A stretch of DNA of 64,000 bases from Candidatus Nomurabacteria bacterium (GTDB lineage Bacteria; Patescibacteriota; Saccharimonadia; Saccharimonadales; JAGQNJ01), in assembly GCA_023898625.1 (NCBI GenBank), contig CP060231.1, positions 340,258-404,257 on the forward strand. The letters run 5' to 3'. The translations under genes and the position numbers were made by a program. Within the stretch, counting starts at the first letter, position 1. Each line of letters starts with the position of its first letter. Positions 28,626 to 55,531 of the stretch are shown here, one piece after another. Below the pieces are notes generated by a model. The model was not told where the DNA came from. It saw only the letters and a list, made by a program, of their open reading frames with translations, and did not search any database.

Positions 28626-28641
28626 GTAGGTTTGTGATATG

Positions 28642-30009: not shown

Positions 30010-30086
30010 TGATATGATAATAGCATGTATAGTAGTTTTTTGTTAAAGAGTGAGTAAAGTATAATGTAGTAAGTTATGGAGGGAAA

Positions 30087-31952: not shown

Positions 31953-31958
31953 GTAGAT

Positions 31959-33632: not shown

Positions 33633-34176
33633 TCTGAGAGACCTCTACCTTTTTGTCGTTAACATAATAGGTTGCGGTTAAGTTCCATGTTCCAAGCTTG
33701 GTAAATTCTACCTCTGGAATGCTGGTGTTACATTTGTTGCCAGAAACCACAACTTCTCTAATAACCGGTTTATCTTCTGTAGTTGTAAACGAAAAAACAC
33801 ATTTTCCTCCACTATCTCCACTAGTTTCAGCATCTACTGTGATTTGCCCACTTGATTGATTAACAGAAACTATCTTAATGCTAGAAGTCGTTGTTCTGGG
33901 GATTTGGTCAGACGTGTTGGTGCTAACAGAGTTATTTGTTTTAGCTTCACTACTACTGGGTTGATCAACTTGAGTGTCGTTGTCCTGATTCATGACTTCT
34001 GTTTTAGCGGATGTGATCTGTGCGGTATCTTTATTTTTGTTGCTTGATTGTTTCTTATAAAACAAGAATACGCCAACTACTACTATGACAATAAGCACCA
34101 AACACACCAGTATCAACTTCTTGTGATTTGGTTTACTTGTTATTGCATTAGTGATTTTGTATTTTTGTGCTGACAT
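33616..34176 (-). CDS. Membrane-anchored Ser/Thr-rich hypothetical protein
   Basis: Single TM (LILVCLVLIVIVVVGVFLF), a low-complexity S/T/N-rich spacer, then a ~90-aa beta-rich C-terminal domain. 17-nt overlap with the downstream gene. Confidence 0.6.
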   Translation of the reverse strand: MSAQKYKITNAITSKPNHKKLILVCLVLIVIVVVGVFLFYKKQSSNKNKDTAQITSAKTEVMNQDNDTQVDQPSSSEAKTNNSVSTNTSDQIPRTTTSSIKIVSVNQSSGQITVDAETSGDSGGKCVFSFTTTEDKPVIREVVVSGNKCNTSIPEVEFTKLGTWNLTATYYVNDKKVEVSQNVTIN

Positions 34177-34229
34177 TGTTTTAGCAGTATGGTATTAACT
34201 TTGTAATAATACCATAAGCAAGAAGGAGA

Positions 34230-34964
34230 TTACAAACCCCTTTTAAATTTTAGCTTTGGAACTAAGATCAAGTTTTTTATTAACGTGTTTTTTGGAATTT
34301 TTGATTTACCGTGCTGTCTGTCTCGGAAGTTTATGGGAATTTGTTTTGCGGATATACAATTTTGTAGAGCTTTGTACTTTAACTCAATTAAAAAACCATA
34401 TCCAGTAGAGTTAATACTATTTAGATCAATTTTACTAAGTAAATCTCTGCTGTATAGGTTGTAACCGCCTGTATAATCCGAAATTTTGTTATTCAATACA
34501 AAGCGAGCATAAAAGTTACCATATTTACTAAGTATCCGACGATGAAGTGGCCAATCTGGGGTGCCACCACCCGAAATATATCTAGATGCAACAATAAAGT
34601 CATGCCCAGATCTAGCTGAATCAATGAACTTCGGTATGTACTTTGGGTTATGCGAGAGATCGGCATCCATTTGTAGAATATAGTCTACTTTTTCATCTAG
34701 CAACTTATTAAATCCAGCTATACAAGCCTTACCAAACCCATCTTTAACTTTACGGGTTAATAATAGAACGCGAAAATTATTTGTACCATGTAATTTAGCA
34801 AACTTTTCTACAACTTTTCCCGTATTGTCGGGCGAGCTGTCGTCAACCACTACAATTATTGTTTTAGTATTTTTTTGGTTAGAAAGAGTACTTTTTATAT
34901 TGCTTAGCAGTTTATCGATGTTTTTTGCCTCATTATAGGTGGGGATTGATATTCCAAGTTTCAT
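34230..34964 (-). CDS. Polyprenol-phosphate sugar synthase (dolichyl-phosphate mannosyltransferase/GtrB-CsbB-like GT2)
   Basis: 'LGISIPTYNEAKNIDKL..VVVDDSSPDNTGKVV..MDADLSHNPKYIPKF'. The tracked ORF extends to ATG at 34988; ATG at 34964 gives the usual N-terminus. Confidence 0.8.
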   Translation of the reverse strand: MKLGISIPTYNEAKNIDKLLSNIKSTLSNQKNTKTIIVVVDDSSPDNTGKVVEKFAKLHGTNNFRVLLLTRKVKDGFGKACIAGFNKLLDEKVDYILQMDADLSHNPKYIPKFIDSARSGHDFIVASRYISGGGTPDWPLHRRILSKYGNFYARFVLNNKISDYTGGYNLYSRDLLSKIDLNSINSTGYGFLIELKYKALQNCISAKQIPINFRDRQHGKSKIPKNTLIKNLILVPKLKFKRGL

Positions 34965-35002
34965 ATTACTATAGTCTAGCAGATACATTATAATACGTAG
35001 GC

Positions 35003-35482
35003 ATGGTATTGAGAATATTTGAAGTCCGATTTGCTCGATTTATTTGTGTAGGTTTTTTTAATACCACACTAGACTTTTTGCTGTTAAATCTATTAGCATT
35101 TGTTGCGCATATACCAGTATTGGTAGCGAATGTTGTTTCGGTTTGTGTTGGAGTTGTGGTTTCTTATTATTTAAACCATATTTTTGTTTTCAGACATCAT
35201 TCGCCTCCGTCTTTACAGTCATTTGCTAAGTTCTTTATTGTTACTGGAATAAGTGTCGTGGTTGTACAGACTGTTGTTATCGCTATCATGACCCCAATTT
35301 ACATGAACCTATTACATAGTTTATTAAATTTAGTGTCTAGTTTTGGATTGGATGGGTATGAACATCAGCTAGCTGTTAATATGGCCAAAGTTACTGCAGT
35401 TTTGGTCGGGATGTTTTGGAACTATATATTATATTCTAAGACAGTTTTTCGTGAGAATACCAAACATAGAGTCGTAGAGTAG
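35003..35482 (+). CDS. GtrA-family membrane protein (putative polyprenyl-P-sugar flippase)
   Basis: 'FARFICVGFFNTTLDFLLLNLL' and 4 TM segments, ~150 aa. Confidence 0.8.
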   Translation: MVLRIFEVRFARFICVGFFNTTLDFLLLNLLAFVAHIPVLVANVVSVCVGVVVSYYLNHIFVFRHHSPPSLQSFAKFFIVTGISVVVVQTVVIAIMTPIYMNLLHSLLNLVSSFGLDGYEHQLAVNMAKVTAVLVGMFWNYILYSKTVFRENTKHRVVE

Positions 35483-35488
35483 TTATTA

Positions 35489-36814
35489 TTAGTATCCATG
35501 ATTCTGGGGATCAATTATGCTAAATCGTATTATCCACCCACCTCCTGGGTTTATTGGAATAACAACATCTTGTTTTGACATATCAACTGTCTGAAGTTGC
35601 TCTACCCCTTTTGAATATTCTTTTGTAAGGTCTACAAAACCTTTATTAATCATAAAAGAGTTTGTATATATCGACGTTGCCATTCCGACAGAAATAAACA
35701 CACTTAATGCATATAACCTAAAGGGTTTTGGTATATACATGCTTCCAAATTTAGCGAAGGCTATCGATATTCCAAGGATTCCATAAACAAAATATCTGTC
35801 GCCAAATTTAGCATTTGCCATAAAGTTTAATATTTCATCAGTTGATTGTAATTGAACCAAGGGGCTTCGTAGGATTGCAAATGTTATTCCAGCAATGAAT
35901 AGAAATAATAGTTTAGTTTGGTGGTTACTTTTGAAAAATACTATTATAGCAATCGTAATTGACGATAAAAATACCAAAATCAATAGCGCTACTTTTGCTA
36001 CACTCAAAGGCACATCTGGATTAATATCTAATCTAGTAAAGGTGATTGCTGGTATTAATATTTGATTATATATTTCTAAAATTGTATTTTTTGAGAATAA
36101 TGCAAGTATGCTTATCGAAGATCTTGTGTCATCTCTATTTAAATAGGCTAATAATTGCACAATTGAACCAAGCGTAGCGATTACTAACAGATATACTTGT
36201 TTTTTATGATAGTAAAAACGATTAATCAACAGGATGCCAAAATAAAGCCAAGCGAAAGGCAGGGTTAAGCAAATAACTATAAAGAACATAGTCTCTAAAT
36301 AGTTGACTATTTTAATGCTTGATTTGCGCACAACGATTAATAGTATCCCAACAATGCCTAGTAAAAATATTGAGTTAGAAAAATTAAAGAAAAATTCATC
36401 AACATTGGCTATCAAGCACAAAGAAGCTAAAACAAATATTCGTTCAAAATTTGTTGTAAGTATTTTGGTTCGTGGTGTGTATAAGTAATAAACGGTCAAA
36501 CAGAATAATCCGAACGCAGTTAGGTTAAACAAAAAAGGAGCCCACATTAGTGGTAGCTTTACTACCATTAGGCCAAACAAGCGTTCGAATAGATGAGAGA
36601 AACCATTTAGGGGAATAAATAGTGACTTTATGCCTAAATTAAAGCCATCCGCCAACCAAACAGCACCATCTTCTGCATATAGTTGGGGCTTGATAATGTA
36701 TCTAATACTCCTAATTGCATAAAATAAACTAGCGAACAATACATAAAAAGATGGCCCAGAGAGGAGGTCTTTAATTGTTGTTATTGTTTTATTTGTGCTA
36801 TGTTTGCGCGGCAT
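35489..36814 (-). CDS. Polytopic membrane protein, possible GT-C-type glycosyltransferase
   Basis: 441 aa with about 11 or more hydrophobic segments. Adjacent to the polyprenyl-P-sugar synthase and GtrA genes. No motif recognised directly. Confidence 0.4.
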   Translation of the reverse strand: MPRKHSTNKTITTIKDLLSGPSFYVLFASLFYAIRSIRYIIKPQLYAEDGAVWLADGFNLGIKSLFIPLNGFSHLFERLFGLMVVKLPLMWAPFLFNLTAFGLFCLTVYYLYTPRTKILTTNFERIFVLASLCLIANVDEFFFNFSNSIFLLGIVGILLIVVRKSSIKIVNYLETMFFIVICLTLPFAWLYFGILLINRFYYHKKQVYLLVIATLGSIVQLLAYLNRDDTRSSISILALFSKNTILEIYNQILIPAITFTRLDINPDVPLSVAKVALLILVFLSSITIAIIVFFKSNHQTKLLFLFIAGITFAILRSPLVQLQSTDEILNFMANAKFGDRYFVYGILGISIAFAKFGSMYIPKPFRLYALSVFISVGMATSIYTNSFMINKGFVDLTKEYSKGVEQLQTVDMSKQDVVIPINPGGGWIIRFSIIDPQNHGY

Positions 36815-36975
36815 CCATGTAATTATACACCGTAAACTTATCGATTAATTATTCTTACGATTCATAAAATTAAGGCATTTATATGTGACTATATTGTTTA
36901 CTTTACCTTTGTAGTAAGTACAGTAATTTTGTGTAAAACCAACAAATCTTATGCAGTTTTTTTAAGGGTGCCTGG

Positions 36976-37827
36976 TTATTTGTTAAGATATTTGCCGTAA
37001 CCGGATTTTTTTAGAGGTTCTGCTAGCTTTTGGAGTTGATTATTATTAATGAAGCCTTGTTCATAGGCAATTTTTTCTGGACTTCCAATGATTTGCCCTG
37101 TTCGGTTTTGGAGTACACGCACATAATCAGTAGCGTCGCTAAGGCTGTTGATTGTCCCAGTATCTAACCAGACATCGCCATCATCAAGAGTAGTAACCTT
37201 TAGCTTTCCTTGTCTTAAGTATTCCTCATTAATAGATGTGATTTCTAGTTCACCACGAGCGCTAGGTTTGATGTTTTTAGCAATATCTACCACGCTATTG
37301 TCATAAAAATACAAGCCCACAACAGCATAGTTACTTTTAGGGTTTGATGGCTTTTCTTCAATAGATTTAGCTTGCATGCTCGCTTCAAACTCAACAACCC
37401 CGTACCGTTCTGGGTCAGATACTTGATAAGCAAAAACAATACCGCCATCTGGGTCGGTACAGTTTTTGAGAGATTCATCTAATTCTGCTCCGTGAAATAT
37501 GTTGTCCCCAAGCACAAGGGCCACTTTGTCGTTGCCAATAAAATCTTCGCCGATAATAAAAGCTTGAGCCAAGCCATCAGGAGATGGTTGCACGGCGTAA
37601 TCCAGCTTAATTCCCCAGCTAGATCCATCGCCTAGCAAACGCTTAAACTGATCCTGATCATGAGGTGTAGTGATGATTAATATGTCTTTAATGCCCGCCA
37701 TCATTAGGGTGGATAAAGGATAATAAATCATTGGCTTGTCGTAAATTGGTATAAGTTGTTTGCTGATGCCTTGTGTAATTGGATGCAGTCGCGTTCCACT
37801 ACCACCTGCTAAAATAACACCTTTCAT
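36976..37827 (-). CDS. rfbA: Glucose-1-phosphate thymidylyltransferase
   Basis: [35 protein letters not shown] is a textbook RmlA. Confidence 0.95.
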
Positions 37828-43056: not shown

Positions 43057-43911
43057 TTAATTACCAGGATTTTTAGTTAGGTATTCTTTTAGAGCCTCTA
43101 GCCAAGGTTGTGGTTTGTATCCAAGCGATTTAATTTTATCCAGCGATAGTTCACTTTGTAGTGGACGTGGAGCAATACCTTGTTTATCTTTATAATAGTC
43201 TTTTGTTGACACACCAGTCACAGTATTAGTTAGATTTGATAGCCTATATATAGTTTTAGTGATTTCTGCCCATGACGTTGATTGTCCATCATTTGTTATA
43301 TTGTAGGTACCGAACGGCGCTTTCGTTGACAATATGAAATCAATAGCTTTAACCAGTTCGCCAGTGAAGGTAAGTCTGCCAATCTGATCATTTACAACGG
43401 ATGGATTAATGCCTTTATGAGCTAGATCGAGCATGGTGCGCACAAAGTTTTTGCCTTCGCCGATTACCCATGACGTGCGCAGTATATAGTAGTTTTGTAA
43501 AGTTGAGACCAATAAATCACCTGATGCCTTGCTAGCTCCGTATACACTAAGGGGGCTAAAAGGTTCGTCTTCTAAGTGAGGAGTGATCGTGCCATCAAAC
43601 ACATAGTCTGTAGAGATATGAACAAGCGTAATATTATTTTGTCTCGCAACCTGGGCTAGATTTCCAACAGCCGTAGCATTAACCGCCCAAGTAGCAGTCC
43701 TTCCTTTGGGTGTTTCAGCTCCATTGACATTGGTATAAGCCGCAGAGTTAATCAGCACTTTTATGCCAGACCAATCGTAGTTTTCTACGGACTTTCTATC
43801 TGTTATATCTAAAGTATCGGAATCGGCGGACTTGGCATTAGGGTATTTTTGCCGTAGTGCTGTACCCAATTGCCCATTCGCCCCCACTATGAAAATATCT
43901 GTTTCTTTCAT
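43057..43911 (-). CDS. rfbD: dTDP-4-dehydrorhamnose reductase
   Basis: 'IFIVGANGQLG', 'YGASKASGD' (YxxxK). The ATG at 43911 forms an ATGA overlap with the upstream ATPase stop. Confidence 0.9.
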   Translation of the reverse strand: MKETDIFIVGANGQLGTALRQKYPNAKSADSDTLDITDRKSVENYDWSGIKVLINSAAYTNVNGAETPKGRTATWAVNATAVGNLAQVARQNNITLVHISTDYVFDGTITPHLEDEPFSPLSVYGASKASGDLLVSTLQNYYILRTSWVIGEGKNFVRTMLDLAHKGINPSVVNDQIGRLTFTGELVKAIDFILSTKAPFGTYNITNDGQSTSWAEITKTIYRLSNLTNTVTGVSTKDYYKDKQGIAPRPLQSELSLDKIKSLGYKPQPWLEALKEYLTKNPGN

Positions 43912-45017
43912 ATGTAGTCCCAATAATTCTCCTTAGTGATAAATTCCGTGCTTACGCTAGGGTATGACGATCTAAAACCGGCTGGTATTTTGGATTGTTT
44001 TTTCCATTTACATTCATAGGCATGAGTCTCTTGGGCGACCTCCTCTATAAGGTCAATTTCTTGCCTATCGCGTGAACGCCAGTAGTAGCTACGTACGAAT
44101 TTTTGTTCGTTCTGATGCAATTTAAGTCGCTCTACTAATACAAAATTCTCCCAGAGTTGACCAACATCGTTTCGCAGATGGAGATCTCTAAAATCATCTA
44201 TAAGCGCATTGCGCATACCAAGATCATAAAAATACACTTTTCTTAGTCTGCCAATCAGAGATCTTTGGTTCTTGCGGTATTGAGGGCGTCTAAAGACTAT
44301 GAAGGCCTTTTCTAGCAAGTCGATATAGCGCATGACAGTTTCTTTACTGATTTCTAAATGTGTTGCCAGTTCACTGTAGCTGACCTCATTGCCTATTTGA
44401 TGAGCTAACAACCTCAACAGGTTGTCGATAACGGTCTGGTCGTATATTGTGCCCAGTGCAAAAGAATCTTTGTACAGATATCGATTAGCTATATCTCTAG
44501 CTCTGTTAGCTGAGTCTTCTAGGTTCATGCCCCACAACCCAGGATACCCACCATGTATCAGTAATCTCTCGAGATTATTATTCCCTGACAGTAGATTTTT
44601 TGACACTTCTTTGAGTCCGAGTGGGTAAAGCAATAGCTCGACAGATCTGCCAGTCAGAGGTTCTTTGGTTTTGTTAGCTAGATCTAGGCTAGAGCTACCG
44701 GTAAGGAGTAATTTTATATTTGGTAGGTTGTCGTGGATAAGTTTGGCGGTTAGGCCGATGTTTTCTACACGCTGTGCTTCATCAATAACAACCAAATCTG
44801 TGTTGCTAAGAAGTCGTTGCAAGTTATTGAGCGATTGATTTTGTAGTTGTCGGACAATTACTGGGTCATCACAGTTAAGATACAAGCCATTTTGTGAACT
44901 GGTCAATAGTTTTTTCGAGAGAGTAGTTTTGCCTACTTGTCGTGCGCCATATAGCACGGTAACAAATCCCTCACTTATAGCATTAATAAGATGTGGTTCC
45001 AAATTGCGATCTATCAT
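43908..45017 (-). CDS. AAA_14-type ATPase with wHTH and DUF4143 (PD-(D/E)xK-like) domain, paralogue 2
   Basis: Walker A GARQVGKTT, Walker B LVVIDEAQ, 'LEISKETVMRYIDLLEKAFIVF', 'EIDLIEE..HAYECKW'. Collinear similarity to 19720-20883. Confidence 0.8.
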   Translation of the reverse strand: MIDRNLEPHLINAISEGFVTVLYGARQVGKTTLSKKLLTSSQNGLYLNCDDPVIVRQLQNQSLNNLQRLLSNTDLVVIDEAQRVENIGLTAKLIHDNLPNIKLLLTGSSSLDLANKTKEPLTGRSVELLLYPLGLKEVSKNLLSGNNNLERLLIHGGYPGLWGMNLEDSANRARDIANRYLYKDSFALGTIYDQTVIDNLLRLLAHQIGNEVSYSELATHLEISKETVMRYIDLLEKAFIVFRRPQYRKNQRSLIGRLRKVYFYDLGMRNALIDDFRDLHLRNDVGQLWENFVLVERLKLHQNEQKFVRSYYWRSRDRQEIDLIEEVAQETHAYECKWKKQSKIPAGFRSSYPSVSTEFITKENYWDYI

Positions 45018-45024
45018 ATCAGCT

Positions 45025-45072
45025 AGTATAAATCACGTTATTATAGCGAGTCAAGTAGCGATAATAACGTGA
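45025..45072 (-). promoter_or_regulatory. 12-bp perfect inverted repeat overlapping a promoter-like TTGACT-18-TATACT upstream of ATPase paralogue 2
   Basis: TCACGTTATTAT (45033-45044) / ATAATAACGTGA (45061-45072), 16-nt spacer. On the minus strand, TTGACT (45049-45054), 18 nt, TATACT (45025-45030), then 7 nt to the ATG at 45017. Confidence 0.4.
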
Positions 45073-45094
45073 ATATAGAAATTGATTATGTTAA

Positions 45095-45640
45095 TTATAT
45101 TTCTAAAGTATCTTTAAGAAATGGGTGACTGAGGTCTTTTTCAGACACGATTGCATGCTTCTGTGCTATCGGCCATTTGATATCAAGGGCTGGATCGAAT
45201 AGATTTATTAGGGTGTATTTTGAGTTAGGTGACCAGTGATCATTGACCAAGTATGTGTATGTTACATTTTCTTCAAGAGTTTGGTAGCCGTTAGCAACTC
45301 CTCGTGGAACGAAGATTGCTATATTTGGAGTAATTTCAGCAGTAAACACTTTTCCATAACTAGATCCTTTGCGTAGATCTACCCATGCACCAAAAACTCT
45401 TCCGTTAGCTACTGAAATAAATTTTTCCCAAGGTTCAGCATGAAGTCCACGCGTAACCCCAACCTTTTCGTTGTAGGAAAAATTATTTTGAACAATATCA
45501 AATGCAGGTAGCCCAAGAGCTTCCATTTTTGTTTTTTGATAATTTTCTTTGAACCAGCCCCTATTGTCGCCATATACAACTAAATCAATAACAAATAGCC
45601 CTGTGATAGGTGATTCAGTAACTTTTATTTCACTCGACAT
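45095..45640 (-). CDS. rfbC: dTDP-4-dehydrorhamnose 3,5-epimerase
   Basis: 'DNRGWFKE', 'RGLHAEPW', 'FVPRGVANGYQTL'. ATG at 45640 is preferred over GTG at 45667. Confidence 0.93.
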   Translation of the reverse strand: MSSEIKVTESPITGLFVIDLVVYGDNRGWFKENYQKTKMEALGLPAFDIVQNNFSYNEKVGVTRGLHAEPWEKFISVANGRVFGAWVDLRKGSSYGKVFTAEITPNIAIFVPRGVANGYQTLEENVTYTYLVNDHWSPNSKYTLINLFDPALDIKWPIAQKHAIVSEKDLSHPFLKDTLEI

Positions 45641-45759
45641 ATGGCAATAGTATACATTAATGTCCACCTTCTTTTATTTGATTACCTTCAATTAGATGTT
45701 GGCTAAAAGGTTTTTCATTATGTTAGAACCGAAATAAATTTAGCTATGGAGTACTGTTT

Positions 45760-46794
<1,035 letters not shown>

Positions 46795-48126
46795 TTAATT
46801 TTTGATGTGCGTAGTGACTTTGTCAACAAGCTGATTAAGTTTGTCTTTGGTTTTGGCTTCAATATTGAGTCGTAGAATTGGTTCGGTATTGCTGGGCCGA
46901 ATATTAATCCAGGCGTCATCAAACCAAACTGTCAATCCATCCAACGTATCTTGTTTGTTATCTTTAAATAGCTTGGATATTCTTGTGATCATGGCTTGTT
47001 TGTCTTTAACTTCAAAGTTGGTTTCGGCAATATGGTGATATTTATTAAACTGACTTACAAGACTAGACAGGGGTTTGTTACTGATAGATAGAACATACAA
47101 CGCAACAACACAGGCAATTAGGCCCGAATCAGCGTTGTAATTATCTCTAAAATAATAATGACCACTACTTTCTCCAGCAAAAATAGCATTGTGTTTGCGC
47201 ATTTCTGCCTTTATGTACGAGTGACCTACTTTAGTGCGAATGGCGGTTCCTCCGTAACTCTTCACTATTTCTGGAACAATCCAGCCACATGTGGCGTTAT
47301 AAAGAATTGTTTGATTAGGGTCTTGTTGCAGAAAGAAATCAGCTAGCATGGCCGTAAGAGCTGTGCCACTAATAGCATGTCCGTTCTCATCAATCAGAAC
47401 TGCACGGTCGCCATCACCATCAAAAGCCACACCAACGTCGGCATTCTCTGTTTTTACGCGGTTAATTAAGTCTTGAATATTGGCTGGTTCGATAGGATTG
47501 GCGATATGATTAGGAAATGTTCCGTCGAGCTCAAAGTACATTTCGGTAACCTCAAGAGGCAAACGGGGTTCCAGGTGGGGTATTATTTTTCCGGCCATTC
47601 CGTTGCCGGCATCGATGATAACCTTCAGGGGTTTGAGCTTATCGATATCAATAAAACTCAAGACATGATTTAGCCAGTCGTTTATAACATCTTTCTGCGA
47701 AATAGTGCCTTCTGGTTTTGCTTGCCAAGTATTAGTTATTGCTAGGTCGCGTATTTCTGCCAGTCCAGATTCAATGCCGATTGGTTTGGCTTGTTCGCCA
47801 CAGAACTTAATTCCGTTATACTCCCCTGGATTATGGCTAGCTGTAATCATAATTCCTCCAGCAAGGTTATAAAATCCTGCTGAAAAGTAAATCATATCAC
47901 TAGTAACTTGGCCGACATCAATAACGTCACGACCTTGATTAACTAGACCGTTAATCATAGCTTTAGCTAGCTCCTCAGAGTCTGGGCGCATGTCTCTCCC
48001 AACCGCCACAGACCCTTTAGTTGGTAACCAATTTGCAACTGCTTTACCAATACTATTAACAACATCAGGTGTTAACTCGCTACCAACCTTACCGCGAACA
48101 TCATAAGCTTTAAATATTTGATCCAT
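46795..48126 (-). CDS. Phosphomannomutase/phosphoglucomutase
   Basis: Active-site loop 'TASHNPGEYNGIKF', Mg site 'FDGDGDR', 'GESSGH'. Confidence 0.92.
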   Translation of the reverse strand: MDQIFKAYDVRGKVGSELTPDVVNSIGKAVANWLPTKGSVAVGRDMRPDSEELAKAMINGLVNQGRDVIDVGQVTSDMIYFSAGFYNLAGGIMITASHNPGEYNGIKFCGEQAKPIGIESGLAEIRDLAITNTWQAKPEGTISQKDVINDWLNHVLSFIDIDKLKPLKVIIDAGNGMAGKIIPHLEPRLPLEVTEMYFELDGTFPNHIANPIEPANIQDLINRVKTENADVGVAFDGDGDRAVLIDENGHAISGTALTAMLADFFLQQDPNQTILYNATCGWIVPEIVKSYGGTAIRTKVGHSYIKAEMRKHNAIFAGESSGHYYFRDNYNADSGLIACVVALYVLSISNKPLSSLVSQFNKYHHIAETNFEVKDKQAMITRISKLFKDNKQDTLDGLTVWFDDAWINIRPSNTEPILRLNIEAKTKDKLNQLVDKVTTHIKN

Positions 48127-48202
48127 TCTTATATGGTATATGAAAGGTTGAGATATCAGAAATACTTGTCAAACCTGATATAATATTACGCAGAGGAAGA
48201 AA

Positions 48203-48625
48203 ATGAACACAACAATAGCCTTGAAGAATAAATTTCAACCAGTTCGTAAATCAAAATTACCTGTTAGTTTACGTACACATAAGGACGAGGCCAAATATTT
48301 ACAGGCTAAGCAAAGAGGTGTTGCAAGAAGGCCTTTATATGAAGAAACCCCAATACAAATTTGGAATAATTGGATGTTGATAGAAAATCAGTTTCCTTAC
48401 AACGCCGTTTTTGATACTCATCATATGTTAGTACCTAGGCGTGGAGGCGTAATAAAGGCTGATCTATCAAAAACAGAACGCCAAGAGCTCGAAGACATTC
48501 TAGACGAACTTAGCGATATATATGATTGTTACATGGTTAATTACCCTAAGAAGCAATCGATAAAATCGCATTATCATATCCACTTATTGACATACAAAAC
48601 AGATCGTCGAGATTTGAAGTTATAG
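48203..48625 (+). CDS. Small HIT-like protein
   Basis: C-terminal histidine triad 'SHYHIHLL' (HxHxHxx). 'IENQFPYNAVFDTHHMLVPRR' resembles the HIT/GalT-like substrate loop. Confidence 0.45.
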   Translation: MNTTIALKNKFQPVRKSKLPVSLRTHKDEAKYLQAKQRGVARRPLYEETPIQIWNNWMLIENQFPYNAVFDTHHMLVPRRGGVIKADLSKTERQELEDILDELSDIYDCYMVNYPKKQSIKSHYHIHLLTYKTDRRDLKL

Positions 48626-49633
48626 CTACTGCTGTTGTTGCCAATGCCAAGCATCTTTTAGGGCGTCACCCAGCGACAAGGTGGATTTCCAGTGTAGAGT
48701 CTTGTTGGCTTTTGATGTATCAGCATAAATTTCGATAATATCTCCAGGGCGTCGGGGTCCAATTTTGTAAGGCACTTTTATATTATTGACAGACTCGAAG
48801 GTGTTTATTATTTCTAGTACGCTAGCACCTTTGCCGGTTCCGATATTTATAGCATCGTAAAAATTTTGGTTATTTAGGAGGGTGTCAAGAGCTTTGACAT
48901 GGGCTTTTGCTAGATCAACGACGTGAATATAATCTCTTATACAGGTTCCATCTGGAGTATCATAATCGTCGCCATTAACAGTGAGTTCTGGGCGAATTCC
49001 TGAGGCCGTTTGGGTAACGTAAGGTACGAGATTAGCGGGTGTGCCGATAGGGAGTTCGCCAATTTTGCCACTTGGGTGAGCTCCAATTGGATTAAAATAA
49101 CGTAGAGCAACGGCAGATTTTATAAGACCCGCGCTGTAACAGTCTTTAAGAATGGTTTCGCACATTTGCTTAGTTGCACCGTAGGGTGATTCAGCGGGTT
49201 TGAATGGCGATTCTTCGGTGATTGGCAGATTATCTGGTTCGCCATAAACCGTACAGGATGACGAGAAAACTAAATTAGAAACTCGGTGTTGGGCTAAAGT
49301 TCGTAGCAAAGTAATAAAGTTTGCCACATTATTTTGATAGTAATCTAAGGGCTTGGCTGATGATTCGCCAACTGCCTTAAAGGCTGCGAAGTGAATAACT
49401 CCTGAAATATCATACTTTTTGAATATGCTATTAAGAATATCTAGATCTGCAAAGTTGCCTTGAATAAATTGGGGTGGAGTTTTGGTGATATCGGTTATGC
49501 CCTGCAAAACAGAGTCTCTTGAATTACTTAAGTCATCAATAATTATCGGATTGTATCCACTACTAATCAGTTCAACAACGGTGTGTGATCCAATAAATCC
49601 AAGTCCGCCTGTCACTAGTACATTTTTTGACAT
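48626..49633 (-). CDS. galE: UDP-glucose 4-epimerase
   Basis: 'VLVTGGLGFIGSH', 'YGATKQMCE' (YxxxK). 335 aa. Confidence 0.93.
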   Translation of the reverse strand: MSKNVLVTGGLGFIGSHTVVELISSGYNPIIIDDLSNSRDSVLQGITDITKTPPQFIQGNFADLDILNSIFKKYDISGVIHFAAFKAVGESSAKPLDYYQNNVANFITLLRTLAQHRVSNLVFSSSCTVYGEPDNLPITEESPFKPAESPYGATKQMCETILKDCYSAGLIKSAVALRYFNPIGAHPSGKIGELPIGTPANLVPYVTQTASGIRPELTVNGDDYDTPDGTCIRDYIHVVDLAKAHVKALDTLLNNQNFYDAINIGTGKGASVLEIINTFESVNNIKVPYKIGPRRPGDIIEIYADTSKANKTLHWKSTLSLGDALKDAWHWQQQQ

Positions 49634-49846: not shown

Positions 49847-51160
49847 ATGAAGATTTTGGGTAAATTAGTAAGGTACGGGAAAGTTCTTTGGTTGGTGGGT
49901 GTCGTGTTGCTGAGCGCAAACACTTCTTTATTAACAAAAACAAAAGTCGAAGCGAGTAGTTATCCTTGGGGTGGTGCTGTTTGTGTGGCAACCGGACAGG
50001 TTAGCGGAAAGTGTCCAAATTACGAGTGGTCATATAATGGGCAAGTTCGCAATTCCGCAACAGGCAACTATTATTATAGGAATTGCACAGACTATGTTGC
50101 TTGGCGATTAATAAATTCTGGCATTCCGTTATCGAAAGTTTCTGGTCTTGGAGGAGCTGGCTCTTGGGATGACAATGCACCACGAAAAGGTTTGACTGTT
50201 AGTGGGGTGCCAACACCAGGTTCGGCTGGTGTTGATGAGCGTTACGGGCATGTGGTTTATGTAGATAGTGTTAGTGGATCTACAATAACAATTTCTGAAT
50301 TTAATTGGGGCAGTACTGGTAGTTATGGCTCGCGTACCGGTACGGCAGGGCAGTTAGGGTTGTCAAAGTTTGTAAGTTTTGGTTCGAGCCAACAAAGTAG
50401 TGGCTCTTATGAACAATATTATTCAGGAAGTGGCGTAAAATCGGCAAGTTTCTTGGGAACCGACAGGTTATATCCAGGGCAGGTAATGCGAGCTAATCAA
50501 TATATAGAATCATTCAATACAAAATATGTCTTGTTGATGCAACCAGATGGCAACTTGGTAGAGTATGGTGGAGAAGCATTTAATCCAGTTTGGAATACCA
50601 GAACATCAGGTAATCCTGGGGCATACGTAGCTTATCAGCCAGATGGAAATCTAGTTGTTTATGCGTCTGACGGCAGGCCACTTTGGTGGTCGGGCATGAG
50701 ATCTGGATCGAATCAACTAGTATTACAAAACGATGGACACCTGGTTAACTATAATCCTTGGCATAACCCACTTTGGTATACGGGCGTATACTTCGCAGAT
50801 AATACTTTTTATGCTGGCACTAACGTAATAAATTCAGGCGGTAGGCTAATACAGAATCAGTATATAAGATCTGGAGATGGTAGATATAGCTTACGTATGC
50901 AAGCCGATGGTAATCTGGTTATTTATGGACCAGGAAGCCATGCCTTATGGAATACCAGAACGTTTGGTAATCCTGGGTCAAGGCTTGAGGTTCAATATGA
51001 TGGTAATCTGGTCATCTATAACAGATATGGTGGCGCAATTTGGTGGTCGGGAATGAGAGCAAACTCTAAGCTTCTTTTCATGCAGTCAGACGGAAACCTC
51101 GTACAGTATGATTTATGGTGGAGACCGTTATGGAATGCCGGCACCAACGGCAGGTTATAG
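49847..51160 (+). CDS. Secreted CHAP-domain hydrolase fused to two bulb-type (monocot mannose-binding) lectin domains
   Basis: ATG at 49847 with a GGGGGA SD. Signal/anchor VLWLVGVVLLSA. CHAP 'YYRNCTDYVAWRL...YGHVVYVDSV' (~49960-50375). Six QxDxNxVxY-type motifs: QPDGNLVEY, QPDGNLVVY, QNDGHLVNY, QADGNLVIY, QYDGNLVIY, QSDGNLVQY (~50450-51157). Confidence 0.8.
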   Translation: MKILGKLVRYGKVLWLVGVVLLSANTSLLTKTKVEASSYPWGGAVCVATGQVSGKCPNYEWSYNGQVRNSATGNYYYRNCTDYVAWRLINSGIPLSKVSGLGGAGSWDDNAPRKGLTVSGVPTPGSAGVDERYGHVVYVDSVSGSTITISEFNWGSTGSYGSRTGTAGQLGLSKFVSFGSSQQSSGSYEQYYSGSGVKSASFLGTDRLYPGQVMRANQYIESFNTKYVLLMQPDGNLVEYGGEAFNPVWNTRTSGNPGAYVAYQPDGNLVVYASDGRPLWWSGMRSGSNQLVLQNDGHLVNYNPWHNPLWYTGVYFADNTFYAGTNVINSGGRLIQNQYIRSGDGRYSLRMQADGNLVIYGPGSHALWNTRTFGNPGSRLEVQYDGNLVIYNRYGGAIWWSGMRANSKLLFMQSDGNLVQYDLWWRPLWNAGTNGRL

Positions 51161-51164
51161 GGCG

Positions 51165-52232
51165 CTACGGTAAGTGTTTACCTAACGATGTTTTAAATTC
51201 ATCCTGACTGAACTGAGAAGGAAATGGAACCTTCCTGATTGGGTCATAGTTCTCTAAAGCTTTCATAAGACTATCAACGGTTTGCTTCTCAAAGAAAACA
51301 CCTGTTTCACCTGGTTTTATATAGTCCAGGGCGCCACCAGACCGATAGGCGATCACTGGACAACCGGAAGCAATTGCTTCAACTGCTACTATTCCAAAGT
51401 CATCAATTCCTGGGAAAATAAAACCTTCGGCTGATTGAAAAGCGTCGATAAGTTGACTGTCAGATACATTGGTTTTAAAGGTAACTGATGGCCCTGCAAG
51501 GTTGCGTAATTTTTGATTTTCTGGACCGTCACCTATTACTAACAATGGTTTATTAAGACGTGAACAGGCCTTTACGGCTAAATCAAAACGCTTATATGGT
51601 GTTTGTCTACCCGCAATTACAAAACCACTACTCTTATGTTGTTTTATGGGCTTAAATCTTTCAACATCGACAGGAGGAAAGACCACTAAACTTTCTCGAT
51701 TGTAGTATTTTTTGATTTGTTTTTTAGTATATGTAGAGTTGGCGATTATCATATCTGGACGCTGGCTGGCTTTGTAATCCCATTTTCTTAGTGGAGAAAC
51801 TAAAATCTTTAGCCCCAAACGTGCTAGAGGGTCGAACACTCCAAAGCCCGGATGCTTCAAATATTCATCGTACCTGCTCCAATAATAGTGTGTCGGTGCA
51901 TGTATATAGGCAACATGCTTTGTCTGCTTATTGGTAATAACTCCTTTGGCTTCGGCTCCGCTAGAGGAGATGACCAAATCATAATCTGAGAAATCTAACG
52001 ACTCGAACCACTTAATACGTAGAAAAGGAATAAACTTTCTTAACTTGCTAAAGGGCCAATTTTGCAAATAACCGGTTATAACTTTGTTGTTAAGTCGTTG
52101 GCGCCATTCATCAGTAGCGTAGCTGGTATAGATTGGCGCATCTGGGTATATTTGATGGATTGCTTCAACTACTTTTTCGGCTCCTCCACCAATAAGCCAG
52201 TCGTGAACTATGGCGACTTTTAGTTTGCTCAC
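51165..52232 (-). CDS. Glycosyltransferase family 4
   Basis: 'KVAIVHDWLIGGGAEKV', and C-terminal 'DDFGIVAVEAIASGCPVIAYRSGGALDYI'. Confidence 0.85.
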   Translation of the reverse strand: MSKLKVAIVHDWLIGGGAEKVVEAIHQIYPDAPIYTSYATDEWRQRLNNKVITGYLQNWPFSKLRKFIPFLRIKWFESLDFSDYDLVISSSGAEAKGVITNKQTKHVAYIHAPTHYYWSRYDEYLKHPGFGVFDPLARLGLKILVSPLRKWDYKASQRPDMIIANSTYTKKQIKKYYNRESLVVFPPVDVERFKPIKQHKSSGFVIAGRQTPYKRFDLAVKACSRLNKPLLVIGDGPENQKLRNLAGPSVTFKTNVSDSQLIDAFQSAEGFIFPGIDDFGIVAVEAIASGCPVIAYRSGGALDYIKPGETGVFFEKQTVDSLMKALENYDPIRKVPFPSQFSQDEFKTSLGKHLP

Positions 52233-53659
52233 TTTGCTCCTCGACCGTTAATAATAATCCGGAACGTTTTGGCTAGAATTATTAAGTCTAACCAGAAATT
52301 CCAGTTTTGAACATAATACACGTCTAGTTTGCGACGCTCATCAAAACTAATATCTTTTCGCCCAGAAACTTGAGCTAAACCAGTAACGCCAGATTTAACG
52401 CTTAAAATGTGATGGTTATTCTTAGCCTGCTTTATTTCTTCTGGAACTAAGGCTCGTGGCCCTACTAAGCTAATATCACCCTTGATAACATTCCAAAGCT
52501 GGGGTAGTTCATCAAGGCTGGAAACTCGTAAAACATGGCCCAGCTTAGAAATACGGGGATCATCTGGTAAATAATCGCCATTTTGCCGATATTGTCGAGC
52601 TAGATCTGGTTTGTTGATTTTTGCAAAGGCTTCCTCCGGGCTTATTCCACTAAATTTATGTTTCATGGTACGAAATTTATAGATTGTGAAAGTGCGATTA
52701 TATCTGGTGATCCTTTTTTGTTTAAAAATTGGAGACCCAAAATCGGATAAGAACACCAATAGAGCTATAACTAAGTATACCGGCGATAACAAAACTACTA
52801 AGGGTAGGGCGATCGCCAAATCAAATAATCGTTTGACTATTCTACCCCATCCACTCAAGGCAGTTTGGCTAACCGCCACAACAGGTATGGATGATCTAAA
52901 TAATTCGACATCAATATTTCCAACGAAAAGCTCGGTGTTTCCAGGAATAAATCGGTACGAAATATGGTTTTGTTGAGCATATTCGAGGACTTCGTTGTTT
53001 TTGTTCGGGCTATTATATAAGTCGGCCTGGATAATAGCGTGAATATTTTTAGATGTTAACTGTTTGCAGGCATTTGAAAAGCTGTCAAAAACCTTAATTT
53101 TAGTTGGTAAGGCTTCTTTGTAGCCAACGACACCAATAGTTCGATAGCCTGAATTTTTATCATTAAATAGATCAACCAACTCTTTGATCACTGGAGAATC
53201 GCCAATAAGCAGTAAATTACTAACACCTATGCCGTAACGAAATAACCTACTACGAATAAATCTAGCTAGATTACGAAAAATTACTAATAAAGATACTGAT
53301 AATATAAAGCCATAGGCGGGCACTAAACGCGCCGGAAATATGGTTTCTTTGCTAACATAGGCAATACTCAGAATGAATAACAGGCCTACGAAGGACCCAA
53401 TAACAAGACGTCCAAATTCAGAGAATCGCTTTTCATAAATTGAGCTACTATATAGGCCAATTAGGGCAAAAATCACAATCCAGAAAGATGTAAGAACGAT
53501 TAGTGTCGCAAAAAATGAACGTGCCGAAACAAATTCTATCAGAGATCTTTCATCAATCTTGACTCGTAATATATAGGCAATAACAAAAGCAGACAGAATG
53601 GCGAAAAAATCAAGTATTATTAAACAAAAACTGTAAACAAAGGACGCGTTGTTCTTCAT
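52229..53659 (-). CDS. Polyprenyl-phosphate hexose-1-phosphate transferase (WbaP/sugar transferase family), initiating enzyme
   Basis: Four or five N-terminal TM segments. C-terminal 'SPIFKQKRITRYNRTFTIYKFRTM...LDELPQLWNVIKGDISLVGPR'. ATG at 53659 (AGGA SD) is preferred over 53710. Confidence 0.88.
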   Translation of the reverse strand: MKNNASFVYSFCLIILDFFAILSAFVIAYILRVKIDERSLIEFVSARSFFATLIVLTSFWIVIFALIGLYSSSIYEKRFSEFGRLVIGSFVGLLFILSIAYVSKETIFPARLVPAYGFILSVSLLVIFRNLARFIRSRLFRYGIGVSNLLLIGDSPVIKELVDLFNDKNSGYRTIGVVGYKEALPTKIKVFDSFSNACKQLTSKNIHAIIQADLYNSPNKNNEVLEYAQQNHISYRFIPGNTELFVGNIDVELFRSSIPVVAVSQTALSGWGRIVKRLFDLAIALPLVVLLSPVYLVIALLVFLSDFGSPIFKQKRITRYNRTFTIYKFRTMKHKFSGISPEEAFAKINKPDLARQYRQNGDYLPDDPRISKLGHVLRVSSLDELPQLWNVIKGDISLVGPRALVPEEIKQAKNNHHILSVKSGVTGLAQVSGRKDISFDERRKLDVYYVQNWNFWLDLIILAKTFRIIINGRGAK

Positions 53660-53739
53660 AATCCTAACTGTATAATAACAGCTTAAGGGGTTAATAAGAA
53701 CCATAAACATTTTAAAACTGCTATACTATATGTAATCTG

Positions 53740-54234
53740 ATGAAACAAAAAACTAAGAAAAACAAGCAAAATATTAAACAAATAATTCAGTACTCAATCA
53801 CTGGGGGAGCTTGGTTTTGGTCTGGTTATGCAATGTTTGCTCTATGTTATTCGTTCTTTGGGTTAGATATTGTTTCGTCAAAGATCATTTCTTACGTCTT
53901 TGGCCTGGTTGTTAACTTTTTACTTGAACGATTCTGGGTTTTTGAGGATAAGGACTCTCGAAAAAATCTTGATAAAGTTACGTTGCGATATATCTTGCTT
54001 TCTATAATAAATCTTGGAATCGATACCTTTATAGTTTGGGGTTTGAGTCAAGTTGGTATTTCTCCATATATTGGTCAATTTGTATCGGCCGGATTTTTTA
54101 CAGTTTGGAACTATGTTTGGTATAAACTATGGGTATTCGCACGCAAGACAACACCTCATCCACGGCGTGCAGCTTCGCCAACATTAAAGAGGCCAAGGGT
54201 AGTTAAGCGAAGAAAATTAAACACGAAGAAATAA
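53740..54234 (+). CDS. GtrA-family membrane protein with basic C-tail
   Basis: 'IIQYSITGGAWFWSGYAMFALCY', 'NFLLERFWVF'. 4 TM segments. Confidence 0.75.
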   Translation: MKQKTKKNKQNIKQIIQYSITGGAWFWSGYAMFALCYSFFGLDIVSSKIISYVFGLVVNFLLERFWVFEDKDSRKNLDKVTLRYILLSIINLGIDTFIVWGLSQVGISPYIGQFVSAGFFTVWNYVWYKLWVFARKTTPHPRRAASPTLKRPRVVKRRKLNTKK

Positions 54235-54238
54235 ATCT

Positions 54239-54709
54239 ATGGGAAGCAATATTAATAAACCAACAGAAACAACTAGACCAACAAAAAAACAAAAAGCATT
54301 ACTAGATTTTATTAGCGAATTTATTGCCCAGCATGGCTATAGTCCAAGTTATAGAGAGATAAAATCTGGCCTGAACTACAATTCGGTAGCCACAGTTGCA
54401 CTACATATCAACAGTTTAGTAGCAAGAGGGCACTTAATTAAGCGTGATCACTCAGCTAGATCATTGGAGCCAGTAAAGGGCGCAGAAGAATCCATAAAAA
54501 CAAATCGAGTTACAGAAAAAGAAGAGAAGTGGTTGGTTAAGAAGATAGAGTACTATTTTATGACTGCCGAACAAGAACAAGATCCATCACAAGATCAAAT
54601 TAATCAACTTTACGTATTGGTTGGTGCTTTAAAGATTCTTGGTTTTGATGGCGCATCACAAAGCTTTATCTCGAGATTAAGTAGCTTAAAGAATTCATCC
54701 AAAAGGTAA
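54239..54709 (+). CDS. LexA-N-terminal-type winged-helix DNA-binding protein lacking the S24 peptidase domain
   Basis: 'TKKQKALLDFISEFIAQHGYSPSYREIKSGLNYNSVATVALHINSLVARGHLIKR' matches the LexA DNA-binding domain pattern. The C-terminal ~80 aa have no Ser/Lys peptidase motifs. Confidence 0.6.
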   Translation: MGSNINKPTETTRPTKKQKALLDFISEFIAQHGYSPSYREIKSGLNYNSVATVALHINSLVARGHLIKRDHSARSLEPVKGAEESIKTNRVTEKEEKWLVKKIEYYFMTAEQEQDPSQDQINQLYVLVGALKILGFDGASQSFISRLSSLKNSSKR

Positions 54710-54727
54710 TTGAGGTAGTATATTTAT

Positions 54728-55531
54728 ATGGCGATATTACAGGCAATAATACTAGGAATCTTAGAAGGATTTACTGAATTTTTACCAATATCTAGCACAG
54801 GACATCTCTTATTGGCACAAGACTTGATTGGCTATAAAGATACAGCAGAAATTTTTGCGGTTGTTGTTCAGATGGGTGCATTAGGTGCGGTGGTTTGGTA
54901 TTACAAAGAAGATCTTGCCAGGAAGACTAAAGATTTATTTAAAGGCAGTAAACAAGCCAAGCAGTTTTGGAAGATCTGGATAATTGCAACTCTTCCTGCC
55001 TGTGTGGGTGGATTGCTCATGGTGAAGGTATTTGACTTTAGCGTAAACTCGTTGGTTATAGCTCTGGCATTAATTATCGGAGGGGTTATTATTTGGTTAA
55101 TTGAGAATTACCACAAGACTAAGCCTTCGAAGCTAAAACCCCAGTTTGACAAAATAACTACTCGCCAAGCTTTTGGTGTAGGTTTGTACCAGGTTTTAGC
55201 TTTGGTTCCAGGAGTCTCGCGTTCGGGAGCTACAATTATGGGAGGGGTCCTGTGTGGGTTTGATCGCGTTACGGCAACTGCCTTTTCGTTTTATTTGAGT
55301 ATTCCAATTCTATTTATTGCAGGAGCTTACAAGATAGTGGATGGTTATGATGAATTGTCAACTATTAGTGGCGGGGGTGTGGCATTATTGGCTGGAGTTG
55401 TTGCGTCATTTATCACTTCTTTTGTGGTGATAGGTTGGTTGTTGAAATACGTAGCTAAGCATGATTTCAAGATTTTTGCCTATTACAGAATTATTTTAGG
55501 GTTGTTGATACTTGTAAGCTTATTGGTCTAG
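54728..55531 (+). CDS. uppP: Undecaprenyl-diphosphate phosphatase
   Basis: 'ILGILEGFTEFLPISSTGHL', 'PGVSRSGATI'. Confidence 0.93.
   Translation: MAILQAIILGILEGFTEFLPISSTGHLLLAQDLIGYKDTAEIFAVVVQMGALGAVVWYYKEDLARKTKDLFKGSKQAKQFWKIWIIATLPACVGGLLMVKVFDFSVNSLVIALALIIGGVIIWLIENYHKTKPSKLKPQFDKITTRQAFGVGLYQVLALVPGVSRSGATIMGGVLCGFDRVTATAFSFYLSIPILFIAGAYKIVDGYDELSTISGGGVALLAGVVASFITSFVVIGWLLKYVAKHDFKIFAYYRIILGLLILVSLLV

Follow-up and report, generated by a model that had tools for sequence, protein, structure and literature searches.

A probable glycan-targeted peptidoglycan hydrolase, CHAP joined to tandem bulb-type lectins, at a conserved wall-glycopolymer locus of Saccharibacteria

The DNA analyzed here, called the window throughout, is a 64,000-nucleotide stretch of the Saccharimonadales contig CP060231.1, and its plus strand carries a complete gene for a 437-amino acid (aa) protein in which a CHAP domain is followed by two bulb-type lectin domains (Table 1). 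The enclosing open reading frame (ORF) runs from 49820 to 51160 on the plus strand, and the ATG at 49847 (MKILGK...) is most likely the start codon, since the N-termini of orthologs match there and a Shine-Dalgarno-like run, GGGGGA, precedes it. This CHAP-lectin gene forms a monocistronic unit, with galE pointing away from it on one side and a family 4 glycosyltransferase (GT4) gene converging on it from the other; the stop codon of the latter lies 4 nucleotides (nt) away. A scan of positions 49500-51400 returned 5 promoter-like sites, against 5.2 expected, and no terminators.

The domain calls made in an earlier note on this DNA proved right. Pfam recognizes CHAP (PF05257, a peptidase C51-type cysteine/histidine amidohydrolase-peptidase domain; 47.2 bits where 26 is the cutoff, E 3.2e-12, aa 73-153, profile positions 4-81 of 81) and B_lectin (PF01453; 36.7 bits where 32.4 is the cutoff, E 6.3e-9), and the protein belongs to both families. 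The motifs quoted in that note also occur exactly as given, namely the two CHAP motifs with the Cys and the His and six QxDG(N/H)LVxY lectin motifs, five canonical and one with Asn changed to His, which make up two complete three-lobed bulb lectins. The number of lectin motifs is exactly six, and neither they nor the CHAP motifs are chance matches, since a six-frame scan finds them nowhere else in the 64-kb window. The two lectin domains are 50% identical to one another.

A conservation alignment and an AlphaFold2 model were built on 36 homologs of 33-93% identity. The mean predicted local distance difference test (pLDDT) value of the model is 85.4, with about 90-97 in the lectin region and low values only at residues 27-37 and 180-190; the latter fall below 50 and lie in the linker, where mean identity among orthologs is just 38%. 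Single lectin domains were matched by Foldseek to gastrodianin (1xd5; template modeling (TM) score 0.90, root mean square deviation 1.5 A) and to a Marasmius lectin (4tkc; TM 0.90), and the tandem to pyocin L1 (E 2.5e-14), LlpA and the two-domain plant lectin SCAfet, so the beta-prism II fold expected of these motifs is confidently modeled. For the N-terminal half, the nearest solved structures are the CHAP domains 9eum, 5t1q and LysK (4csh), with staphylococcal CHAP enzymes among the matches. At the extreme N-terminus, a helix is predicted at aa 2-29, pLDDT falls at 27-37, and an (A/V)-x-A site after the helix is kept among orthologs (VEA/SS in the window protein; KAHA, KVKA and AEA in others). 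This helix and the conserved site suggest a Sec signal peptide that is removed by cleavage, as opposed to a lasting anchor; of the signal or anchor seen in the earlier note, the signal is retained.

Residues C80, H135, W249, W280, W310, W368, W399 and W429 and most lectin motif residues are invariant in the 36 homologs, and E151 and N153, either of which could supply the third polar residue of the CHAP site (SEFNW), are conserved in at least 90% of them. A helix is predicted at residues 80-90 with the catalytic Cys at its start. With its Cys/His pair and third polar residue present, the CHAP domain is predicted to be catalytically intact. Very probably, then, the protein is a secreted, glycan-targeted peptidoglycan hydrolase, although its enzymatic activity is something we infer. 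An adhesin or lectin acting chiefly at the surface, in attachment or biofilm formation, with CHAP co-opted for binding, would also make use of the six conserved sugar sites, and lectin-type domains have repeatedly been proposed as adhesins of candidate phyla radiation (CPR) bacteria (PMC10633639, PMC12911398). We consider this role quite improbable, as the catalytic Cys, His and E/N position are strictly conserved at 33-93% identity, CHAP is the most conserved part of the protein, and no anchoring motif beyond the signal peptide was seen in the CHAP-lectin protein sequence.

The best NCBIfam match of the protein is the putidacin L1 family of LlpA-type bacteriocins (NF033557; 129.7 bits, E 1.3e-37, in six stretches). 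A PDB sequence search likewise put pyocin L1/L2 and LlpA on top; it matched at least 30 B-lectin chains from plants, fungi and bacteria, one of them that of the mycobacterial LysM-B-lectin protein 4oit. LlpAs consist of a pair of domains of the monocot mannose-binding lectin (MMBL) type and a C-terminal hairpin and need no immunity protein; their C-domain binds D-rhamnose of lipopolysaccharide (LPS) and their N-domain binds loop 6 of BamA (PMC6240691). Pyocin L1 recognizes the D-rhamnose common polysaccharide antigen (CPA) (PMC3916391). With LlpA, putidacin L1 and pyocin L1 (NF033557; 3m7h, 4le7), the window protein shares the MMBL tandem, the Trp triads and the QxDxNxVxY motifs, and by analogy its lectins may likewise bind surface polysaccharide. 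However, its 129.7 bits lie below the family cutoff of 275, and LlpA has no separate enzyme domain, whereas the tandem here is preceded by a conserved CHAP hydrolase. The C-terminal beta-hairpin of LlpA (residues roughly 248-276) has no counterpart: the alignment to 3m7h stops at chain residue 247 of 276, and the window protein ends 8 residues later. Moreover, the LlpA motifs lie mainly in the C-domain, the N-domain being degenerate, whereas the N-domain motifs of the window protein are all present and conserved. Given the score below cutoff, the extra enzyme domain, the missing hairpin and the intact N-domain motifs, the protein is, as far as alignments tell, not an LlpA-family member, and the likeness drawn in the earlier note survives as one of fold only. 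Nor is rhamnose docking as in LlpA simply transferable, because the locus makes dTDP-L-rhamnose whereas LlpA and pyocin L1 bind D-rhamnose.

A true LlpA-type bacteriocin, in which the lectin pair kills at the surface and CHAP is accessory or inactive, would agree with these top matches by family, sequence and fold. We nevertheless hold it to be extremely improbable: in addition to the low score and the missing hairpin, the six intact motifs are at odds with the degenerate N-domains of LlpA, and the invariant CHAP catalytic residues would argue for an active domain. Furthermore, LlpA kills via BamA loop 6 in the outer membrane, an implausible target here. Its two receptors, the D-rhamnose CPA of LPS and loop 6 of BamA, are features of diderm cells, whereas the producer and its hosts are monoderm, and we know of no BamA-type target in Saccharibacteria or their Actinobacteria hosts.

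A precedent for the general design is albusin B of Ruminococcus albus 7, a bacteriocin that pairs a B-lectin with an M15 peptidase, MMBL domains being reported as 'often fused' to other domains (PMC6240691). In both proteins, a single secreted polypeptide of a monoderm bacterium combines a bulb-type lectin with a peptidoglycan peptidase, the lectin for targeting and the hydrolase for damage (PMC6240691). Albusin B uses an M15 metallopeptidase where the window protein has a CHAP cysteine peptidase/amidase; no M15 domain (PF08291) was found in the window protein by the Pfam scan, and it is thus not an albusin-type M15 fusion. Its lectin is N-terminal and described as a single domain, whereas the tandem of the window protein is C-terminal, and albusin B has been shown to inhibit another species.

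Gram-positive CHAP autolysins and endolysins (LysK with its CHAP-amidase-SH3b layout, SAOUHSC_02979, PcsB and ScrM) resemble the window protein in being secreted and in joining CHAP through a linker to a separate targeting or regulatory module. They differ in relying on SH3b, LysM, choline-binding, CW_7 or coiled-coil modules for targeting, where the window protein has two beta-prism II lectins in tandem. To ScrM (NF052572; 38.6 bits against a cutoff of 400) and PcsB (NF046104; 24.2 against 450), alignment is confined to the CHAP domain, and by these scores the protein is outside both equivalogs. The lead offered by ScrM, which is the highest-ranking NCBIfam match of the CHAP domain and a streptococcal competence fratricin, was dropped, the similarity being at domain level only and no Fem-type immunity gene being adjacent. 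Among Actinobacteria, bulb-type lectins are combined with wall-related or targeting modules in the LysM-B-lectin protein of M. smegmatis (4oit) and in the Streptomyces UmbA lectins (9oee) as well, both of which came up in the sequence or fold searches, but these have no CHAP domain, and UmbA is part of a multi-protein toxin particle. UmbA4 (9oee) was considered as an earlier case of a bulb lectin that binds a wall polymer of Gram-positive bacteria, but its teichuronic acid is bound by a beta-propeller and not by a bulb lectin (PMC13274773), and the parallel is a loose one.

Proteins of this architecture are abundant in databases. By precomputed annotation, CHAP and B_lectin occur together in 57 of the best 120 homologs, and others pair B_lectin with NlpC/P60 or M23 peptidases; the named sources among these 120 are Saccharibacteria, Thermoleophilaceae, Cellulomonas and Rathayibacter. 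When 1.84 billion representatives (50% identity clusters) were searched exhaustively, 805 clusters were returned at E <= 1e-30, and about 20 of the best 150 are collinear across CHAP and both lectins (proteins of ~400-490 aa). Judging from these counts, the fusion is a recurrent family, frequent in metagenomes, and not a rarity. The earlier note, which knew of no such fusion, had therefore overstated its novelty, and the principle has a precedent in albusin B (PMC6240691); no paper was found in our literature search that calls the architecture a housekeeping autolysin. Neither the Saccharibacteria transposon-sequencing paper nor the host-defense paper mentions a CHAP or bulb-lectin protein. 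The design is thus a known one, a variation on targeted wall hydrolases such as albusin B and the modular Gram-positive autolysins and endolysins, in a combination that is abundant in databases and uncharacterized. What is new is its placement in a Saccharibacterial wall-glycopolymer locus, where it is conserved and undergoes module swapping.

Relatives of the lectin half are also encoded by viruses, at least 324 IMG/VR loci carrying B-lectin tandems. Domain layouts were derived by ORF extraction and motif check, then Pfam, for ten of these loci, and comprised six Phage_tail_L fusions, one Rv2525c-like glycoside hydrolase with B_lectin and LysM, and one genuine CHAP plus B_lectin protein. The Phage_tail_L (minor tail protein L) fusions, which carry tandem or multiple B-lectins at the C-terminus and occur in many viral contigs (L053, L055, L064, L078, L112, L120), suggest glycan-reading tail tips, and the Rv2525c-like protein (L074) has a lysin-like layout. 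P0096 is a 445-aa CHAP plus tandem B-lectin protein that has an N-terminal hydrophobic segment and is 38% identical to the window protein. Its gene occurs in two loci (L051, L052), where the neighboring genes are on the other strand. The L051 contig is phage-like in its RecT, HNH endonuclease and T5orf172/FtsK-gamma genes and its many short, overlapping unannotated ORFs, with a GC content of 48%. A tblastn search with the CHAP half gave no match to the viral loci at 1e-4, L051 included, because the CHAP halves are too diverged.

P0096, the many viral tandems and the general use of CHAP in endolysins raise the prospect of a phage-derived endolysin or a domesticated prophage lysin that sits in the chromosome by chance. 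Against this origin, the architecture was absent from 50,697 phage genomes, in which just one lectin fragment was matched, and a PHROG search returned a single unannotated PHROG, for the lectin part only. The viral B-lectin proteins are mostly tail proteins and not lysins. The gene itself has chromosomal sugar-pathway genes as neighbors, no phage genes being found among those scanned with Pfam; it is not part of a lysis cassette, encodes a classical signal peptide in place of a holin partner, and has kept its position among chromosomal polysaccharide genes across deep divergence. A phage origin is accordingly very improbable in our assessment.

The surroundings of the gene are those of an envelope pathway: about 40 kb of the window serves an ABC-transporter-type wall glycopolymer that uses dTDP-L-rhamnose (Table 1). 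Full-length orthologs at 54-60% identity, with flanking genes up to 98% identical, were found in Candidatus Saccharibacteria metagenome-assembled genomes (MAGs), which places the window in that phylum. In L001-L004, L006 and L007 (55-60% identity), CHAP-lectin, GT4, Bac_transf and GtrA again follow in this order, and galE and rml genes lie on the opposite side. Linkage on the upstream (rml/galE) side is kept in L002, L006, L017 and L049, and the downstream gene order in L001-L004, L007, L013, L021, L049 and L050. On the 1.05-Mb contig L049 (37% identity), the gene lies in the series rmlA/D/C/B, phosphoglucomutase (PGM), CHAP-lectin, GlmS, GT4, Bac_transf and Wzy, and in L050 (40% identity) it lies between GT4, Bac_transf and Wzy genes and GalE-like and LexA-type genes. 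The linkage of the CHAP-lectin gene to wall-polysaccharide genes outlasts rearrangement, as it is still present in the locally rearranged L004 and L050. This conserved synteny lends support to the proposal of the earlier note that the lectins are aimed at the organism's own rhamnose- or mannose-type polymer. Nearby rml genes were counted in 4 of 7 loci of the B-lectin type and in 0 of 2 loci with another module, numbers too small to serve as evidence.

In two distant Saccharimonadales loci (L013 and L021), the gene at the same position, again convergent with the same GT4 gene, encodes a secreted protein whose CHAP half is still visibly similar but is followed by other C-terminal repeats. The L013 protein has about seven 'GWHFExLDG...G' repeats with a propeller-like look and the L021 protein four repeats of ~110 aa each with 'VPCNNG...WADWQDY..WH'. 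Neither module has a Pfam match, and both are possibly undescribed wall-glycan-binding domains. Among homologs of the same CHAP in other Patescibacteria, whose loci were scanned with Pfam, the partners are FG-GAP propellers, a fucose-lectin-like propeller or DUF346 repeats. A word-index homolog search with the CHAP half alone gave 27 candidates and 7 matches, all short CHAP-only proteins. Since the C-terminal modules differ both at the same locus and across Patescibacteria, the tandem B-lectin is, on this comparison, one among a set of glycan-binding modules that can be exchanged on a shared catalytic chassis.

Taken together, we favor, with middling confidence for the full statement including the self-wall target, a secreted CHAP-lectin hydrolase that is tethered to the producer's own wall polysaccharide. 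After Sec export and signal-peptide cleavage, CHAP (Cys80/His135, with Glu151 or Asn153) would cut peptidoglycan at the MurNAc-L-Ala amide or in the stem peptide or cross-bridge. Connected to it by the flexible linker, the two bulb lectins with their five to six intact QxDxNxVxY sugar sites would form a multivalent module for wall-glycan binding. Docked on the mannose- or rhamnose-type glycopolymer that the surrounding locus produces, this module would concentrate the enzyme on the monoderm wall and position it there, and the enzyme may serve wall remodeling or daughter-cell separation. Activity, bond specificity, ligand identity and self rather than foreign target are what we infer here. A self-wall target is preferred on two grounds: the gene stays linked to the organism's own polysaccharide genes even where the locus has been rearranged, and Gram-positive autolysins as a rule carry binding modules that match the secondary wall polymer of the cell that makes them. 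Swapping of the C-terminal module, as would be expected if this part were an exchangeable wall-binding domain, adds support, as does the lack of flanking phage genes, of a toxin-immunity pair at the gene and of any phage-genome homolog bar the lectin fragment.

Several observations weigh against a self-directed autolysin. Wherever the target of tandem B-lectins is characterized or can be inferred, it is another cell, as with LlpA and pyocin L (PMC6240691), with albusin B and with the tail-tip proteins of phages. Our literature search found no characterized CHAP-B-lectin enzyme. The neighboring Rml pathway yields dTDP-L-rhamnose, whereas the canonical lectin motif binds D-mannose or D-rhamnose, and the synteny may be partly passive in small, slowly rearranging genomes. 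The lectin-fused enzyme is also not the only CHAP protein of the organism. A second, very divergent one, whose alignment to it is confined to the Cys motif, lies in the window, and related Saccharibacteria encode a protein (L011) in which an N-terminal coiled coil is joined to a C-terminal CHAP, a layout like that of PcsB; such enzymes could cover housekeeping division. Finally, the lectin half diverges faster than the catalytic half: orthologs have a mean identity of 72% in CHAP, 60% in the N-terminal lectin and 52% in the C-terminal one, which is the fastest part of the protein. In P0001, a 93% ortholog, lobe II of the C-terminal lectin has been overwritten by lobe II of its own N-terminal lectin. 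There, aa ~369-404 are almost identical to aa ~250-285, and the middle lobe reads NTRTSGNPGAYVAYQTDGNLVVYPSDGRPLWWSGMR where the window protein has NTRTFGNPGSRLEVQYDGNLVIYNRYGGAIWWSGMR; because of this intragenic gene conversion, identity in the C-terminal lectin is only 82%, with 96-98% in the rest. Rapid lectin divergence and gene conversion fit diversification against foreign surfaces just as readily as tracking of the producer's own polymer.

The opposite target is that of a host- or competitor-directed lysin, whose lectins would read the mannose/rhamnose wall polysaccharide of Actinobacteria hosts or rivals and whose CHAP domain would open peptidoglycan locally so that the epibiont can attach, reach nutrients or kill. 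The Saccharibacteria in cultivation live as obligate epibionts of Actinobacteria (PMC10633639, PMC11623550), and the binding of TM7x to its host can be inhibited by sugars, being almost abolished by L-rhamnose and halved by mannose, with the responsible lectin unidentified (PMC11623550). For other CPR bacteria, an attack on the host wall by secreted hydrolases has been proposed (PMC8080830). The foreign targets of other tandem B-lectins and the fast-diverging, gene-converting lectin half point the same way, as do the lineage-swapped C-terminal lectin and propeller modules, which are reminiscent of the diversified lectins of umbrella toxins (PMC13274773). In addition, CHAP-B-lectin and NlpC/P60- or M23-B-lectin proteins occur in Actinobacteria, which is consistent with gene exchange between partners. 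However, a host-directed role does not predict tight, long-lived linkage to the producer's wall-polysaccharide genes, and the gene appears to be single-copy, in a fixed core position and not in a variable or accessory region. The same architecture also occurs in apparently free-living Actinobacteria-type MAGs (Thermoleophilaceae P0054, Acidimicrobiales L009) and is thus not specific to epibiosis, and a non-exhaustive search identified no orthologs in those cultured oral strains that have been studied for host binding. We take a foreign target seriously as an alternative, if one on the unlikely side.

A more inclusive version, in which the CHAP-lectin and the syntenic proteins with other modules together form the epibiont's device for host recognition and wall breaching, with C-terminal module swaps setting the host range, strikes us as rather unlikely. 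There, the lectin pair would be the sugar-inhibitable lectin that reads host rhamnose/mannose polysaccharide, and CHAP would open peptidoglycan at the contact.

Table 1. Positions of the CHAP-lectin gene, its parts, its neighbors and the related loci discussed (window positions unless a locus is named)
Feature	Position	Strand	Remarks	Basis
CHAP-tandem-B-lectin coding sequence, complete	49847..51160	+	437 aa plus stop	ORF listing, Pfam, NCBIfam, motif scan
Predicted signal peptide, aa 1-36	49847..49954	+	K/R-rich n-region, hydrophobic core VLWLVGVVLLSA, VEA/SS cleavage-type site	
Catalytic half, aa 37-178	49955..50380	+	Conserved Cys pair (C45, C55), then CHAP domain	
CHAP domain, aa 73-153	50063-50305	+		Pfam
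Motif NCTDYVAWRL, from aa 79	from 50081	+		Motif scan
Catalytic Cys80 (predicted)	50084-50086	+		
Motif GHVVYVDSV, from aa 134	from 50246	+		Motif scan
Catalytic His135 (predicted)	50249-50251	+		
Flexible linker, aa 179-204	50381..50458	+	Ser/Gly/Gln-rich	
N-terminal bulb-type lectin (beta-prism II) domain, aa 205-318	50459..50800	+	Trp triad W249, W280, W310	
Motif QPDGNLVEY, aa 232	50540-50566	+		
Motif QPDGNLVVY, aa 264	50636-50662	+		
Motif QNDGHLVNY, aa 294	50726-50752	+	His variant	
C-terminal bulb-type lectin domain, aa 319-437	50801..51157	+	Trp triad W368, W399, W429	
Motif QADGNLVIY, aa 352	50900-50926	+		
Motif QYDGNLVIY, aa 383	50993-51019	+		
Motif QSDGNLVQY, aa 413	51083-51109	+		
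Equivalent of gene-converted segment of P0001, aa ~369-404	50951-51058			
Upstream neighbors as a whole	43057..49633	-		
rmlD	43057-43923	-		Pfam; NCBIfam best match
DUF4143/AAA ATPase gene, inserted	43908-45017	-		Pfam
rmlC	45095-45667	-		Pfam; NCBIfam best match
rmlB	45760-46767	-	470.6 bits, above curated cutoff	NCBIfam RmlB
PMM/PGM gene	46795-48126	-		Pfam
Small conserved ORF	48203-48625	+		
galE	48626-49633	-	400.9 bits, above curated cutoff	NCBIfam GalE
Downstream neighbors as a whole	51165..55531			
GT4 glycosyltransferase	51165-52232	-		
Polyprenyl glycosylphosphotransferase (Bac_transf)	52229-53710	-	Priming transferase	
GtrA-like protein	53740-54234	+		
LexA-type HTH protein	54239-54709	+		
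BacA/UppP	54728-55531	+		
Wider envelope-glycopolymer block	18838..37827			
ABC-2 exporter permease	18838-19674			
DUF4143/AAA_14 ATPase gene, first copy	19720-20883	+		
ABC exporter ATPase	20861-22081			
DegT aminotransferase, methyltransferase, GT2 and GT2/GT4 enzymes	25132-31952			
Protein with three DUF5648 repeats	31959-33632	-	557 aa, 246 bits	
GT2	34230-34988			
GtrA partner of GT2	35003-35482			
RmlA-type nucleotidyltransferase	36976-37827			
Replic_Relax protein	16196-17056	+		
HTH/SocA-Panacea antitoxin-like protein	17244-18017	+		
AdoCbl-II (cobalamin) riboswitch	56614-56686	+	40.6 bits, gathering score 36.5	
ORF downstream of riboswitch	56743-57882		379 aa, no Pfam match	
Acyltransferase-3-like membrane protein (weak)	57889-58608			
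Cytidylyltransferase-like protein	58605-59210			
Second CHAP protein, very divergent	62311-62949	+	212 aa, N-terminal membrane anchor, no lectin; E 1.7e-8	Pfam CHAP
DsbA-like thioredoxin	62976-63617	-		
Syntenic CHAP protein of L013	7818-9491			
Syntenic CHAP protein of L021	7803-9785			
P0096 gene in L051	5382-6719		Opposite strand to neighbors	
P0096 gene in L052	5271-6608		Opposite strand to neighbors	
Rv2525c-like glycoside hydrolase + B-lectin + LysM protein of L074	5350-6531			

Further features of the window lie in or near the glycopolymer genes. The DUF5648-repeat protein encoded among the glycosyltransferases has no other recognized domain and may be another envelope or surface protein. 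Two DUF4143/AAA_14 ATPase genes interrupt sugar-pathway operons, one between the ABC-2 permease and its ATPase and the other between rmlD and rmlC. Homologs occupy other positions in orthologous loci (beside the CHAP-lectin gene in L004; also in L008), a pattern suggestive of an element that is mobile or selfish. The glycopolymer block has at its edge genes for a Replic_Relax protein and an antitoxin-like protein, and GC content across about 20-30 kb of the block is low (0.33-0.35). Part of the polysaccharide cluster may have been acquired horizontally, a possibility at which the analysis only hints. Downstream, an AdoCbl-II riboswitch is immediately followed by the first of three ORFs, and the segment from 56614 to 59210 looks like a B12-regulated operon in a reduced-genome epibiont. 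The second CHAP gene is adjoined by a DsbA-like thioredoxin gene.

Much of the diversity of uncultured bacteria belongs to Saccharibacteria and other Patescibacteria, which live attached to other bacteria. For the question of how they build and remodel their own wall, and how they recognize and open that of a host, the locus described here offers a conserved and tractable candidate: a single secreted enzyme, genetically tied to a defined rhamnose-type glycopolymer pathway, whose targeting half could be expressed alone as a probe. More generally, tandem B-lectins emerge as a surface-glycan-targeting module that is widely reused, in CHAP, NlpC/P60 and M23 hydrolases and in phage tail-tip proteins, well beyond the LlpA bacteriocins. 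If the enzyme is host-directed, it would supply the missing lectin of epibiont-host recognition; if, as we favor, it is self-directed, a plant-type bulb lectin pair would serve as the wall-polymer anchor of an autolysin in a reduced-genome bacterium.

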